A stretch of DNA of 64,000 bases from Acidobacteriota bacterium (GTDB taxonomy: Bacteria; Acidobacteriota; Thermoanaerobaculia; Gp7-AA8), in the NCBI GenBank assembly GCA_019247495.1, contig JAFAOU010000018.1, forward strand, positions 1,518-65,517, in the 5' to 3' direction. Shown piece after piece: positions 27,527 to 41,136 of this stretch. The notes under the pieces were generated by a model. It was given only the letters and a program-made list of their open reading frames with translations, had not been told where the DNA came from and searched no databases. The stretch's first letter is position 1; every line of letters begins with the position of its first letter. The position numbers and the translations under genes were made by a program.

Positions 27527-27745
27527 TCACTTCCTTCTGCTGTCGCGAACCGCGGCAACGATCTGACTTCGATTCAGGCGGAGTTTGGTGCCTTCGACAT
27601 CAAGTGGCGCGGAGGCCGTCGTCTCGGGCCGCAGAACGAAGCTCGCGCCGTCCCGGCGCCGGATGCGCACTCCTCCCCTTCGCCGTGCTTCATCAAGAAG
27701 GCTGGCGAGATTCTGTCGTGCTTCCGAATAGGTATAAATCTTCAC
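27527..27745 (-). CDS. Phd/YefM-family antitoxin
   Basis: YTYSEARQNLASLLDEA...VRIRRRDG; GGAGG RBS; GTG start overlaps the PIN stop. Confidence 0.8.
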   Translation of the reverse strand: MKIYTYSEARQNLASLLDEARRRGGVRIRRRDGASFVLRPETTASAPLDVEGTKLRLNRSQIVAAVRDSRRK

Positions 27746-28137
27746 GTGACCTCCAGGACTTGTACGCCGATCCGCTTCGCGGCTCGGGCCAGACCGTGAT
27801 CCAGAGTGAGTAGTGGCGCGTTGTGTTGTCGTGCGCAGGCGATGAGATAGGCGTCGTAGGCGTAGACCGATAACTCAGCCGCGATTTGGAGCGAAGCGCT
27901 GAGATCGACGTCGACGAACCGTATTGGAATGTCTTCATAACCCTCCAGCGCTTCGGCAATTTCGGGTGGAGTAATCAGGCGGCGTTTCAGCAGGGATGAG
28001 AAGGCATTACCAATCTCCCAGTGGACGGATGCAGGGGCGATGATTCTGGAATCGCGGGTGATGTCCACCAACCGGTCCTTTTCTGCTGCGCTGGTGAGCA
28101 CCGCGATAATGATGGATGTATCAGTCACGATCTCCAT
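27742..28137 (-). CDS. PIN-domain (VapC-like) toxin
   Basis: IVTDTSIII, HWEIGNA, YAYDAYLI, LLTLD acidic PIN tetrad. Confidence 0.88.
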   Translation of the reverse strand: MEIVTDTSIIIAVLTSAAEKDRLVDITRDSRIIAPASVHWEIGNAFSSLLKRRLITPPEIAEALEGYEDIPIRFVDVDLSASLQIAAELSVYAYDAYLIACARQHNAPLLTLDHGLARAAKRIGVQVLEVT

Positions 28138-28172
28138 TGGACAATTGTACAACTTTGTTCGCCGGGTAACTC

Positions 28173-29249
28173 CTAGAGGCCGTAGAAACGCTTTGGGTTG
28201 TGGCAGAGGAGCTTTTCGACCGTTGCGTCGGAAATCGTCCCTTTGAGTGCCATCGCATCCTTCATGACGTTCGGGTCGTGATCCATGTGTGGGAAATCGG
28301 AGCCGATGAGGATGTTGTCGGCGCCTATGAAATCCATGAGCGGGGCCAGGTAAGCCTCCGTCGGTTCGATGGCAACGAAGCACTGCCGGCGGAAGTATTC
28401 GGACGGTTTCATGGTCACGTTGCCGCGCACCTCCCACTCCAGGTCGTGGTACTCGCGGTCGAGACGCCAGAGCCAATACGGAACCCAGCCTCCGCCCGCT
28501 TCCAGAAACGCGAAGCGAAGACGCGGATGCCGTTCCAGGACGCCGCCTTCGATCAGCGCCAGCAGGGCCATCATCTGTTCCATCGGATGCGAGCAGGCGT
28601 GCATGGCGAAACGCGAGTCGAAGCGGTCGGCACCTGCCGACGGCACGCGGGCGTGAGTGCCTTCATGGATTCCAACCGCGATGTTCAACTCCTCGCACGC
28701 GCTCCAGAACGGTTCATACGCGGGATCGCTGAGGAGGCGTCCTTTGATCGGATTGGGACGCATCACGACAGCGCGCCATCCGAAACCGGCGATGCGGCGC
28801 AACTCCGGCACCATCTCGTCAGGCGCATGACGATTGATCGCGCCGACGCCGCGCAGCACCTGTGGATCGTAGGCCACGAAGTCGCGTAGCCAGTTGTTGT
28901 ACGCACGGATGAACGCGCCTGCCAGCGCGGCATCCATCGAGTCGACCGCGAAGAGGAATCCGCCGACCGAGGGATAGAGGAACGCAAAGTCGGCGCCGAG
29001 AATCCTGAGCGCTTTGACCGTCGAAGGAGCATCCCAGGCGGTGATGCCGTACGCCGCGTGGCTGCGATCGAGGATGGACGGACCGGCAGAAGCCACTTTG
29101 TCGGAGATCTTGTTGTAGATCGCCTCGCCATCGAGACGCAGCGCCGTGGTGATGGAGTGGCTGCCGAACTCCGGCTCCAGGTAGTCGTTCCAGATGCTGG
29201 CGGGCTCCCACACGTGGCAGTCGGCGTCGATGATTTCGTGGGCGGTCAT
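28173..29249 (-). CDS. amidohydrolase family (Amidohydro_2/LigW-ACMSD-like) metalloenzyme
   Basis: IDADCH, GIHEG, FLEAGGGW, GSDFPH motifs; ATGA overlap with the SagB gene. Confidence 0.88.
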   Translation of the reverse strand: MTAHEIIDADCHVWEPASIWNDYLEPEFGSHSITTALRLDGEAIYNKISDKVASAGPSILDRSHAAYGITAWDAPSTVKALRILGADFAFLYPSVGGFLFAVDSMDAALAGAFIRAYNNWLRDFVAYDPQVLRGVGAINRHAPDEMVPELRRIAGFGWRAVVMRPNPIKGRLLSDPAYEPFWSACEELNIAVGIHEGTHARVPSAGADRFDSRFAMHACSHPMEQMMALLALIEGGVLERHPRLRFAFLEAGGGWVPYWLWRLDREYHDLEWEVRGNVTMKPSEYFRRQCFVAIEPTEAYLAPLMDFIGADNILIGSDFPHMDHDPNVMKDAMALKGTISDATVEKLLCHNPKRFYGL

Positions 29250-39020: not shown

Positions 39021-40501
39021 GAGCGCGCCTTTGCGAGGTCCGCGAGGAATCCGTCGACGACCGCCGTCTGGAAGCCGGCGTTCCCTTCGTGAAGAACGGT
39101 TGCTTCCAGCGTGCGGAGCCGCTCCTTTTGCGGAGTGGGCGGTCCGGCAACGTAGATCGCGCGTCCGAGCCACGGTTTTTCGCGTCCCAGTCCGCCGCTG
39201 CGCTGCAGTTCGCGGAGCTTGCGGCGCAGCCATATTTCGTTGCCGGCGCCATAGAAGATGATGACCACGTCGGCGGAGCGAAGGTTTTCCTCGTGCTCCA
39301 TCCGGGTCTGCGTTTCGTCCTCGTCGAAGAGCGGCAGGATCACCTCGTACCCCTGGTCGAAGAGGTAGTCGGTCAGCGGGCCGGTCGCGTCCACGTCATC
39401 GCGATCGCACAGCAAGTAGATTCGGGTGAGCTCGCCGGCCGGCACAATGGCCGGCTTTTCCGCTTTCGGTGGCGCGAGCTTCCGGTAGATGAGCGTCTTG
39501 AGATCTTCGATCGGCGTCTCGAGCAGTTCCGCGGTGGCGTGTACGTTCGAATCGGTGCGCAGATGATCGATGAACGCGCGCTGCCGGTCGTCTTCGATCT
39601 CGATCTCGGGCGCCACCCAGATGATGCTGCCCAGACCGCCGGCGCTGCCGCGCTCCGACGCGAGCGTCTGCTGCATTTCCGGAAGCGACTTCACGCCTCC
39701 CTCGGGGACGACGCCGTAGTTCTTTCCGACGAGATGGATGGAGAGCGTGCTGCGGGCGAGTTGTTCGCGCGCCGCCGTGGTGAGGTCGGGCGCGACCAGC
39801 GGCAGGGGACGATCGGGGAGGACCTCGTAGCCGTTGCGGATCAGATCGCGCTTGATGGCCTCCCGCTCCTCGCGAAGCTCGTAGGTCGTCTCCGCGAGGA
39901 AGACCGTTCCTTTGCTCACTGCGGCCGGCGCGGTGGCATTGCCGTTCTGGTGGAGCAACTCGAGCAGCTGCGAGATGTCGTACGCAAGATCGTCGAGCTT
40001 CACAAGAAACGCGCGGTCCGATCCCGGGCCGTACGACGGCGCCAGCTCGCGCGGTCTGCCTGATTCAGGGTCGTAGACGAAGAAGTCGTAGCCGAGCATC
40101 GGCTGCACTTCCGGGGGCTGCTTCTCCAGGGTTACCGGAGTCTTGACGACTTTGAAGATGCGCGCCTTGTCGTGGACGCGCACGCCGCCCGATAGCTCGG
40201 CAGCGGCGCAGAACCCTTTCAACTCGCGGTTGCACCAGTCAGACTGCACGTATCGCGGCGAAAAAACCGAGACGATCGCGGCGATCTTCGGCAGCCGCTC
40301 CATGATGGTGTCGGCGAAAAAATCGTTGCCCTGCAGCTTCGGATCGCGCCAGATCTTCGGCGTCTGTCCCATGAGCTGGCCGACGCGGATTTCGAGCAAC
40401 CGGTGAAGCTGTGAGACCCAGCCTGCCTGGCCGTCGACAAGCGCCTGATCGTCGATGTGGGCGTAGCTGATGAGGAAATCGTGTTCGAACGCCGATGACA
40501 T
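39017..40501 (-). CDS. TIR-domain protein with two additional TIR/DUF4062-like domains
   Basis: DFLISYAH, SPRYVQSDWCNREL (catalytic Glu retained); two further alpha/beta modules; stop overlaps the STAND start. Confidence 0.82.
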   Translation of the reverse strand: MSSAFEHDFLISYAHIDDQALVDGQAGWVSQLHRLLEIRVGQLMGQTPKIWRDPKLQGNDFFADTIMERLPKIAAIVSVFSPRYVQSDWCNRELKGFCAAAELSGGVRVHDKARIFKVVKTPVTLEKQPPEVQPMLGYDFFVYDPESGRPRELAPSYGPGSDRAFLVKLDDLAYDISQLLELLHQNGNATAPAAVSKGTVFLAETTYELREEREAIKRDLIRNGYEVLPDRPLPLVAPDLTTAAREQLARSTLSIHLVGKNYGVVPEGGVKSLPEMQQTLASERGSAGGLGSIIWVAPEIEIEDDRQRAFIDHLRTDSNVHATAELLETPIEDLKTLIYRKLAPPKAEKPAIVPAGELTRIYLLCDRDDVDATGPLTDYLFDQGYEVILPLFDEDETQTRMEHEENLRSADVVIIFYGAGNEIWLRRKLRELQRSGGLGREKPWLGRAIYVAGPPTPQKERLRTLEATVLHEGNAGFQTAVVDGFLADLAKARS

Positions 40502-40698
40502 AGTCCTGCGGCCCTTGCGCCGGGGGAAGATCGTTCTTTAATGGAAACCCTATCAATGGAGTGACACAGGGGAGGTTTTCCCTACCCTTGCTCCCAAATA
40601 TTTTTACGTAGTTTGGCCGTGGATTTCTTATGGGAAGGAAGGATGAGCCCGCTTTCGCCGGTGTGGCGGCGCGCTCGTTCGGACGGCTGAGGAACGGT

Positions 40699-41136
40699 TC
40701 ACGCCGCGGCTTGTTTTTTCGTCGTTTCCTGCTGCGCGGAGGCCCACTTGGCGTGTTCCTGCGACACCAGCGACTCGACGCGTTCGGCGAGCAGGGCGCG
40801 CGGGTCGGCGACGCCGGCGTACGGCGATGCCTTGGCGATGTAGACGTACTTTTCGTGCTTTAACGATTCGCACGTCGATCGATACGCGATCCAGTTCTGC
40901 TGGTACTGGTTCAGATGGAGCAGACCTTCGAGCACCGTGATCACGACGCCCAGCGCTCCCGCTACCCAGCTAACGTTCGGGATCGGGAGCGCCGGCAGGA
41001 ACGGAATCACCGCGGCCGCCACGATCTCCGTGACTTTGATCCGCTTGTAAATCCGCTGGTTACTGCTGCTCTTGCGGTCGTACCAGGAGATCTGATCCTC
41101 GAGACGTTCGATCACCGGATCTGCGTCAGCCGTCAT
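40699..41136 (-). CDS. DUF4231/SLATT-like two-TM protein
   Basis: RLEDQISWYDRKS, two TM helices, NWIAYRSTCESLKHEKY. Confidence 0.82.
   Translation of the reverse strand: MTADADPVIERLEDQISWYDRKSSSNQRIYKRIKVTEIVAAAVIPFLPALPIPNVSWVAGALGVVITVLEGLLHLNQYQQNWIAYRSTCESLKHEKYVYIAKASPYAGVADPRALLAERVESLVSQEHAKWASAQQETTKKQAAA

Follow-up and report, generated by a model that had tools for sequence, protein, structure and literature searches.

The question raised by a block of ten genes in a 64,000-nucleotide stretch of an Acidobacteriota genome (assembly GCA_019247495.1, contig JAFAOU010000018.1; the whole of this stretch is termed the window) is whether genes for a peptide that is synthesized by ribosomes and modified after translation (RiPP) and genes for a TIR protein, a STAND NTPase and a TonB-dependent receptor (TBDR) belong to one system, and if so whether the peptide is what the receptor reads or what the sensing module releases. 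The block occupies about 13.6 kb, positions 27527-41148, and a check of the open reading frames (ORFs) with Pfam and NCBIfam agrees with a preliminary description of the sequence in that all ten are on the minus strand and are of the families there proposed. Two units would make up the system. One is an envelope-spanning core of a cytoplasmic TIR protein, an nSTAND1 ATPase with a single transmembrane (TM) helix and the TBDR, with the coiled coil and WD40 propeller of the STAND protein predicted to reach into the periplasm. The other would be a thiazole-forming pathway acting on an NHLP-leader peptide, of the thiazole/oxazole-modified microcin (TOMM) or linear azole-containing peptide (LAP) kind, with precursor, fused E1-like/YcaO protein, SagB and Amidohydro_2, the TBDR being common to both units. 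The TBDR belongs both to the STAND/TIR core, through being adjacent to it almost everywhere and translationally coupled, and to the RiPP cassette, through sharing history, inverting and diverging with the RiPP genes. That the peptide is the cognate ligand of the TBDR, with the signal relayed to STAND-TIR, is given about even chances from comparison of the sequences.

The core is the more constant part. A forward comparison, in which alignment of TBDR homologues gave 58 loci with one genome per species and 34 full-length relatives (labels such as L001 denote loci of relatives from genomes or metagenomes, and WIN the window), has TIR-STAND directly upstream of the TBDR in about 31 of the 34 and at all levels of TBDR identity (34-80%). 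The STAND stop and the TBDR start overlap or are 2-50 nt apart in most loci, and in the window there are ATGA overlaps at three junctions, TIR/STAND, STAND/TBDR and SagB/Amidohydro_2. TIR, nSTAND1 and TBDR are a conserved, often translationally coupled core. After the TBDR comes an NHLP/YcaO/SagB cluster in 7 of the 26 evaluable species-level loci, a repeat protein of more than 3000 residues with a signal peptide in eight loci, a nonribosomal peptide synthetase (NRPS) in two, a membrane/HEAT/cNMP-binding protein in three and, in single loci, a desaturase, a CDF transporter and others.

For the reverse comparison four long contigs with a YcaO 56-66% identical to that of the window were picked blind to context, and a metagenome scan by YcaO alignment covered 80 loci. 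All four blind-picked contigs carry TIR-STAND-TBDR beside NHLP-YcaO. From all sources together, this TBDR adjoins the YcaO in 13 of 13 distinct loci at 51% YcaO identity or above, and a TBDR, STAND or TIR match is beside the YcaO in none of 77 loci at 50% or below, many of which still have SagB and Amidohydro_2. The 13 linked YcaOs form one clade (SH-aLRT 99), and the TBDR-RiPP link is a feature of one clade of soil Acidobacteria within Thermoanaerobaculia. The YcaO of L005 lies outside it; an independent second origin there, with the YcaO on the opposite strand beside a candidate precursor of Cys/Gly repeats, was considered and dropped, a single clade of all 14 not being rejected (approximately unbiased (AU) test, p = 0.64).

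Within that clade the TBDR and RiPP genes remain joined even where protein identity has fallen to about 50%, and in no fewer than four flanking contexts, among them a Che cluster, abhydrolase/phosphoesterase/TPR genes (L063) and a sigma-54 activator with AraC (L064). The junction survives a swap in the order of SagB and Amidohydro_2, gain or loss of an S53 peptidase, replacement of Amidohydro_2 by an EpiD-like flavoprotein and, in L026, an amine oxidase inserted between STAND and TBDR. Relative to S53/STAND/TIR/SLATT, the whole TBDR-precursor-YcaO-Amidohydro_2 block of L002 and L061 is inverted, and the TBDR goes with the RiPP genes, away from STAND; in L005 the RiPP genes are on the strand opposite to the TBDR.

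Among close relatives the TBDR also follows the RiPP genes in its ancestry. The groupings (WIN,L007), (L001,L059[,L066]), (L002,L003) and (L063,L068) are common to the TBDR and YcaO trees, and the STAND tree has instead ((WIN,L004),L002), (L059,L061) and (L003,L007). Forcing (WIN,L007) or (L002,L003) on the STAND data gives AU p-values of 2e-52 and 9e-63, and forcing (WIN,L004,L002) or (L059,L061) gives 2e-65 and 2e-68 with the TBDR data and 2e-41 and 2e-4 with the YcaO data, values that are indicative only since the groups were chosen after the trees were seen. Over eight close loci the rank correlation of identities (Spearman rho) is 0.69 for TBDR-YcaO, 0.14 for STAND-TBDR and -0.06 for STAND-YcaO. 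The change from one history to the other lies inside the TBDR gene in the closest metagenome-assembled genome (MAG), in which L033 and L004 are two contig ends that meet inside that gene, with the join inferred. Identity to the window in DNA is there 88% over the 10.5 kb of right flank, SLATT, TIR, STAND and TBDR codons 1-166, 64% in the rest of the TBDR (the barrel), 65% in the 5′ part of the YcaO gene, 73% from there to Amidohydro_2 and 90.5% from Phd into the Che flank, and the precursor gene is unalignable as DNA and 35% identical as protein. The STAND protein of L002 is 88% identical to that of the window, its TBDR only 57% and its YcaO 52%; L059 and L061 have STAND proteins 92% identical, and TBDRs and YcaOs 56%. 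Around the block the flanks are 81-92% identical in DNA in L001, L002, L004/L033, L059 and L061, and the block itself 64-88%. It appears that TBDR, precursor and RiPP enzymes are one fast-diverging cassette reassorting between STAND/TIR backgrounds, and that a hypervariable block, comprising peptide, the parts of the enzymes that recognise it and receptor, is exchanged among close relatives between conserved flanks. The TBDRs of the clade with the giant repeat protein lie within the RiPP grade on a long branch (0.63), which would fit a receptor that changes when its neighbour does. The preliminary description had offered two alternatives, the peptide as ligand of the TBDR or as chemical output of the sensing module, and the evolutionary history shared by TBDR and RiPP enzymes favours the first.

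Several results weigh against the peptide being the ligand, beyond the naming of tree groups after the fact and the inferred join just mentioned. The sequences of the compared loci are all from uncultured MAGs or metagenomes. Core modules without RiPP genes, their downstream genes heterogeneous, make up 19 of the 26 evaluable loci, and therefore the core works without the peptide; the preliminary description would have counted it against a single system if STAND-TBDR modules were usually without RiPP genes, and so they are. Its idea that the RiPP and TIR/STAND/TBDR genes form one system holds in that they recur together, rearranged and in varied contexts, and has to be curtailed for this majority; likewise the repeated adjacency of TBDR/STAND/TIR to NHLP-YcaO, which it named as a check, is present in many genomes and metagenomes and wanting in the same 19. 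One origin suffices, and so the repeated adjacency means retention of a feature rather than independent recurrence. A global Mantel test was expected to show co-divergence of TBDR and YcaO and did not, the identity matrices of all twelve loci being correlated with r = 0.80 for STAND-TBDR as against 0.37 for TBDR-YcaO; at depth all the genes diverge together, and the reassortment shows up in close relatives only. Recombination of an already divergent block is possible only via its conserved flanks, and position alone could then account for the co-inheritance of TBDR and RiPP genes. No exporter and no secreted leader peptidase is encoded within any RiPP-linked locus, and the S53 peptidase of relatives is cytoplasmic, without a signal peptide.

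The explanation that survives best beside the peptide-ligand reading, though rather unlikely, is that the two sets of genes are neighbours only, a RiPP cluster having landed once beside TIR-STAND-TBDR and stayed in a fast-evolving island, with co-inheritance through flank-limited recombination. The sufficiency of a single origin, the preponderance of core modules with other and varied neighbours, the want of an exporter in the RiPP-linked loci and the fact that across twelve loci the TBDR agrees no less well with STAND than with YcaO all speak for it, as does the wide occurrence of the RiPP family without any TBDR (the 77 loci above). It has to contend with a junction kept in 13 of 13 loci through the divergence, contexts and rearrangements described, with an inversion that takes the TBDR along with the RiPP genes and off STAND, with repeated recombination breakpoints at, or within, the 5′ end of the TBDR gene and none between TBDR and precursor, and with a constrained spacer, the distance from TBDR to first precursor being 57-103 nt across all 13 RiPP-linked loci.

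If the peptide is the ligand, as is preferred here, the matured peptide with its short C-terminal poly-thiazole end would leave the cell, be recognised specifically by its own TBDR, and occupancy would pass via the N-terminal domain of the TBDR to the periplasmic WD40 domain of STAND, whose ATPase would then switch the TIR output, and SLATT where that is present. The anatomy of the TBDR bears on this. After a signal peptide come an all-helical N-terminal domain (residues ~24-117, nt 35569-35850), a TonB-box region (~119-127), the plug and the barrel; in an AlphaFold2 (AF2) model from 27 homologues, with pLDDT 81, there are helices at 26-120, disorder at 118-134, plug at 139-250 and barrel up to 879. 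Foldseek places PirA, Cir, BtuB, FepA and also OprC at the top of its matches to the model (E ~1e-30, TM-target 0.68-0.83), and Pfam, AF2 model and Foldseek together have the N-terminal plug inside a 22-strand barrel that is the mark of TonB-dependent transporters. PDB sequence matches begin at residue 118, which corresponds to residue 5 of Cir, and a conserved QVxSVSK at 122-128, a putative TonB box, aligns with the Cir N-terminus. As modelled, the helical domain would occupy the position of the signalling domain of FecA and FpvA. There is no Pfam match to the STN domain (PF07660) in the TBDR, its extension being all-helical, nor any FecR or extracytoplasmic function (ECF) sigma gene in the window block or related loci; the set could work like a FecA-type transducer but is not a member of that class.

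On the inner-membrane side, the STAND protein has its nSTAND1 NTPase at residues 15-428, one TM helix at 498-516 (nt 37473-37529), then a coiled coil of about 170 residues rich in Ala, Glu, Arg and Lys, and a WD40 propeller at ~700-1030. A single hydrophobic segment is at the equivalent position in 33 of 34 homologues, and that of the window is preceded by RRRQQLKQARR; the topology is likely N-in/C-out, and therefore the WD40 domain would be periplasmic. The domains that define nSTAND1 conflict systems are all here, namely the nSTAND1 NTPase, a C-terminal repeat sensor and a TIR gene coupled through ATGA. Glu93 in the TIR motif SxWCxRE is invariant in 32 of 32 homologues. The SLATT gene upstream of TIR, with a gap of 197 nt between, is an accessory member: it is beside TIR in L003, L033, L059 and L061, inverted in L007 and absent from L005, L026, L063 and L064. 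Compared with the models of PADLOC, the four core proteins give no match.

The peptide itself is of a recognisable kind. The precursor scores 50.5 bits with NCBIfam leader_NHLP, just under the cut-off of 50.9; its leader ends ..LGLPAKPADLNEEHL and its core is approximately GNYKGTPFCSSTNCHKDMVFCC, of which the part ..TPFCSSTNCHKDMVFCC has four Cys and four Ser/Thr, a Cys/Ser/Thr-rich core as in LAP clusters. The fused YcaO matches TOMM_cyclo_SagD (269.6 bits, cut-off 219) and cyclo_dehyd_2 (166, cut-off 36.9) in NCBIfam. In both the precursor leader and the set of cyclodehydratase, leader-binding protein and dehydrogenase this is an NHLP-leader TOMM/LAP cluster; the leader peptidase and exporter, typically a C39-ABC transporter, that are common in LAP clusters though not strictly defining are not part of it. 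The YcaO ORF as called opens at a GTG at 32848, inside a hairpin, and its homologues begin MxxRPxF; the true start may be a CTG at 32791 behind a strong Shine-Dalgarno (SD) sequence, GAAAAGGAG (32806-32798), which would match that beginning.

Homologous leaders (..LxLPxKPxGLSxxxL..) are on the precursors of 12 other loci. The cores that follow them are very short, hypervariable and almost always Cys-terminal (11 of 13 related loci): ..FCSSTNCHKDMVFCC in the window, ..NPCCCCC in L059, ..ARACCCC in L064, ..SACCTGAPCC in L007, ..TCGCCC in L003, ..VCIICIC in L001, ..FCAC and ..FCHC in L004, and ..DWCC and ..DFCC in L061, with ..DPCIF in L002 and ..HHLHADFSST in L026 as exceptions. The metal binding that had been envisaged through thiazoles and a Cys-His pair finds no echo in this comparison, since the C-terminal Cys is the only part of it conserved among precursors, and the idea of a metallophore acting through that pair, now rejected, is without specific comparative support. 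Amidohydro_2 homologues 56-66% identical adjoin YcaO in many loci that have no TBDR, and the enzyme is a long-standing tailoring member of this NHLP RiPP family. Its own family includes non-oxidative decarboxylases of aromatic acids, and in its place L064 (13835-14392) has a Flavoprotein like EpiD, of the C-terminal Cys decarboxylase type. To judge from family membership, either enzyme would suit a pathway in which the carboxylate of the C-terminal thiazole or Cys is modified. The locus defines an NHLP peptide family in which the C-terminal poly-Cys cores are very short and the tailoring enzyme Amidohydro_2 is conserved.

Other precursor types occur at related loci. L063 (9601-10053) and L068 (3286-3650) have a cassette type in which the NHLP leader is followed by long tandem-repeat tails, for example GKTKGGGAVSDETPG three times or SDSHGNCY twice, rather than a short Cys-rich end. 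Just upstream of TIR in L064 (1388-1618) is a 76-residue gene of the Frankia_peptide family (PF14407) that may be a second precursor type. On the minus strand of L005 (~14004-14150) a 47-residue ORF of Cys/Gly/Thr repeats (MGTGTGCGTGCGCGTGCGSG...) lies beside the divergent, opposite-strand YcaO gene; it has no NHLP leader and is possibly a heterocycloanthracin-like precursor.

Whether the two units share a transcript turns on the spacer between TBDR and precursor. The estimate of some 90 nt in the preliminary description can be made exact, with 90 nt (33246-33157) between the stop at 33247 and the ATG at 33156, and the absence of a clear terminator is upheld: a consensus scan of 27000-42500, in which overall counts were at or below those in shuffled sequence, has neither a terminator nor a sigma-70 consensus promoter in the spacer. 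Its folding is not better than that of shuffled sequence (z = -0.15), and the sole repeat is an inverted one of 8 bp, GTCGAGGA..TCCTCGAC, whose loop is 31 nt long and which has no U-run. Being on the same strand, with so short a gap and no terminator, the two genes are plausibly co-transcribed in the window; co-transcription is not an obligatory, conserved requirement of the system because the TBDR-RiPP block is inverted in L002 and L061, and in L005 the RiPP genes are on the opposite strand. In 10 of 10 loci the last precursor gene is followed by a hairpin of -24 to -34 kcal/mol whose sequence is not conserved; probably it acts as an attenuator or as a 3′ structure that stabilises the mRNA. 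RiPP loci usually have this layout for expressing the precursor more strongly than its enzymes, and it suggests differential transcript levels within the block.

The window precursor is preceded by its own SD sequence, AAAGGA. A further and perfect SD-like sequence, GAAAGGAGG, is at the TBDR stop or a few bases off in 7 of the 13 linked loci (L001, L002, L003, L007, L059, L061 and L066), and its counterpart in the window (33225-33246) is degenerate. It is 65-80 nt upstream of the precursor SD (AAAGGAG), with no consistent ORF after it, and paired sites containing GGA at that spacing resemble CsrA-type binding sites. That it might be the SD of a conserved mini-ORF was considered and rejected, the ORFs that follow being inconsistent (MEKPFDA*, MNK*, MN* or none).

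Contiguous poly-thiazoles are found in known antibacterial peptides, and this counts for the second of the original alternatives, now held to be improbable, in which the core responds to something happening at the envelope, for example a phage or bacteriocin that docks on the TBDR, and the peptide is the toxin or amplifying signal that results. Published modified-peptide systems tied to STAND/TIR conflict systems, those of the FxSxx-COOH type, for which such a role was proposed (Kaur et al. 2020, PMC7159879), lend it some precedent; the TIR protein weakly resembles FxsC, its catalytic Glu is invariant, and a SLATT partner is often present. This explains neither why the TBDR tracks the RiPP genes rather than STAND/TIR nor why the RiPP block can be inverted or on the strand opposite to the sensor genes, and there is no evident immunity gene and no match to a PADLOC model. 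There is an equally small chance that the TBDR is an outer-membrane conduit releasing the downstream product, whether peptide or, in the sister clade, giant repeat protein, much as Myxococcus needs the TonB-dependent transporter Oar for secretion of PopC, and the co-divergence of TBDR and downstream cargo, the lack of any other outer-membrane exporter in the loci and the eight loci in which a signal-peptide protein of more than 3000 residues would need a route across the outer membrane fit such a role, but it is opposed by the lack of an inner-membrane exporter for a leaderless-Sec peptide, by a TBDR fold and TonB-box region of importer type, and by its leaving STAND-TIR and the N-terminal domain of the TBDR without a role.

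The giant proteins belong to a clade of loci (L009-L015 and L032; for instance L010:12505-22446) and have long repeats rich in Gly, Ser, Thr and Asn, with no Pfam match above threshold; one MAG, La1_metabat2.109, has both a RiPP-linked module (L003) and a giant-protein-linked one (L009). Distant TIR-STAND-TBDR modules followed by NRPS genes with A-PCP-C-A domains (L022:12274-19251 and L024:10099-20367) provide a further secondary-metabolite neighbour of the same receptor family.

Taken as a peptide with its own receptor, the locus has close parallels among known systems. Methanobactin operons are RiPP clusters with a dedicated TonB-dependent transporter, MbnT, and surface signalling through MbnR and MbnI (Kenney & Rosenzweig 2013, PMC3621798); there, as here, the RiPP cluster adjoins a transporter with an N-terminal extension proposed to report binding to an inner-membrane partner, and MbnT-type transporters diverge along with the peptide core (PMC3621798). 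The likeness extends to pyoverdine and its FpvA-FpvR-PvdS surface signalling, and the scheme set out above would parallel MbnT-MbnR-MbnI or FpvA-FpvR with STAND/TIR replacing anti-sigma and sigma. In contrast to methanobactin operons, none of the ten genes in the window has an MbnA, MbnB or MbnC domain, the N-terminal domain of the TBDR is helical and not STN, the inner-membrane partner is a STAND NTPase-WD40 protein with TIR and not an anti-sigma/ECF sigma pair, and there is no MATE or other exporter. Clusters for lasso peptides of the astexin type with an isopeptidase have a fixed architecture with a TonB-dependent transporter and a sigma/anti-sigma pair, read as serving a secreted and re-imported peptide (PMC9266682). 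They resemble the locus as RiPP clusters that include such a transporter and a signalling pair, and differ from it in that the window peptide is of the azole class and not a lasso, and that the window has no isopeptidase, no GntR, and STAND/TIR instead of sigma and anti-sigma.

The other half of the locus has its kin in the nSTAND1 conflict systems, in which likewise an nSTAND1 NTPase carrying a repeat sensor is partnered by TIR (PMC8195603, PMC7159879). The preliminary description took a RiPP coupled to an NLR/TIR pathway, that is to one with proteins like nucleotide-binding leucine-rich-repeat receptors, to be new, and this was an overstatement, as there is a precedent in peptide-processing systems of the FxSxx-COOH type, which are coupled to AP-ATPase/TIR (Kaur et al. 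2020, PMC7159879, section 24). In them too a small peptide that diverges rapidly and is matured by enzymes has a genetic link to a STAND/TIR protein, but their chemistry is that of radical-SAM/SPASM enzymes and a metallopeptidase, and they are cytoplasmic ternary systems of Actinobacteria. The window block is not one of them, having no radical-SAM or zincin gene and a TIR protein whose match to NCBIfam FxsC_Nterm, 40.2 bits, is well under the cut-off of 130. TonB receptors, YcaO and RiPPs are not mentioned in the main text of Kaur et al. 2020 or 2021.

No description of the TBDR-STAND-TIR-RiPP arrangement was found in the searchable literature, and two kinds already known are brought together in the locus, one being the RiPP that has a cognate TonB receptor and surface signalling and the other the conflict-type nSTAND1/TIR module. 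The pherotype loci agr of Staphylococcus and comQXPA of Bacillus have a hypervariable block of peptide precursor, the parts of the maturation enzymes that recognise it, and receptor between conserved flanks, reassorted among close relatives. The window cassette shows the same pattern of a hypervariable block; none of its proteins is homologous to theirs, its receptor is a TBDR of the outer membrane and not a histidine kinase, and signalling is only proposed.

The surroundings set the locus apart. Genes on both sides of the block are on the plus strand, and so it has clear boundaries. One flank (18844-27523) has the chemosensory genes CheW, response regulator, HEAT protein, CheR and CheB, and the other (41204-45184) has genes with close homologues in related loci that carry GAF and response-regulator domains. 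DNA of the window is present in root, rhizosphere and rock DNA metagenomes, in contigs of the same strain at low depth, and a search among RNA runs for the stretch found none that contains it. The PIN and Phd genes at the end of the block, included in the original ten-gene system, are not conserved members of it in relatives. They follow the amidohydrolase gene in toxin-then-antitoxin order with a GTGA overlap (27527-28137), and their GC content at third codon positions, 0.62-0.65, is below the 0.74-0.85 of their neighbours; L004 has a Phd 94% identical and no PIN, and other relatives have the sedolisin-like S53 peptidase at that position.

Coordinates of the ten genes of the block and of the hairpin within it, in order along the minus strand
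Feature	Coordinates	Strand	Matches and remarks
SLATT/DUF4231 protein, two TM helices	41148 (likely start ATG 41136) to 40699	minus	Pfam DUF4231 92.9 bits, SLATT_1; NCBIfam SLATT_1 124 bits
TIR_2+DUF4062 protein, 494 aa	40501-39017	minus	Pfam; TIR_2 aa 10-98, DUF4062 aa 200-272, further sequence after
nSTAND1+WD40 protein, 1034 aa	39020-35916	minus	Pfam nSTAND1 322 bits, WD40 149 bits
TonB-dependent receptor (TBDR), 890 aa	35919-33247	minus	Pfam Plug 72.8 bits, barrel 108.7 bits
NHLP precursor, 95 aa	33156-32869	minus	Pfam NHase_alpha 41.9 bits (cut-off 27.2)
GC-rich hairpin, 12 bp, CCTCCGGTGGCC-N12-GGCCGCCGGGGG	32854-32819	minus	Between precursor gene and YcaO, without U-tail
Fused leader-binding (wHTH/E1-like)/YcaO cyclodehydratase	32848-30560	minus	Pfam YcaO 342.8 bits
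ThcOx/SagB-type FMN azoline dehydrogenase	30550-29246	minus	Pfam ThcOx 75, Nitroreductase 65.6; NCBIfam antibiot_sagB 172.9 bits (cut-off 78.4)
Amidohydro_2 enzyme	29249-28173	minus	Pfam 114 bits
PIN protein, 131 aa	28137-27742	minus	Pfam
Phd/YefM protein, 72 aa	27745-27527	minus	Pfam

Were the coupling of peptide and receptor real, a widespread and as yet uncharacterised class of bacterial receptors, NLR-like and membrane-spanning, would gain a candidate ligand, and one that is small, genetically encoded and can be made heterologously, by which the trans-envelope STAND-TIR pathway would become testable. The scheme of RiPP, cognate TonB receptor and surface signalling that methanobactin and lasso peptides exemplify would then reach to a STAND/TIR output that is not transcriptional, and the reassorting cassettes would be a fresh case of specificity groups of peptide and receptor, beyond those of quorum sensing in Firmicutes. 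A more far-reaching idea, put forward speculatively and with little probability, is that the poly-thiazole peptide is a strain-specific password, its only reader being the TBDR of the same cassette, wired via STAND to TIR and SLATT in a kin or pherotype device for telling self from non-self. If true, such a device would bring a TonB-dependent transducer and NLR/TIR signalling together with RiPP chemistry, its cassettes reassorting between strains in the manner of agr groups.

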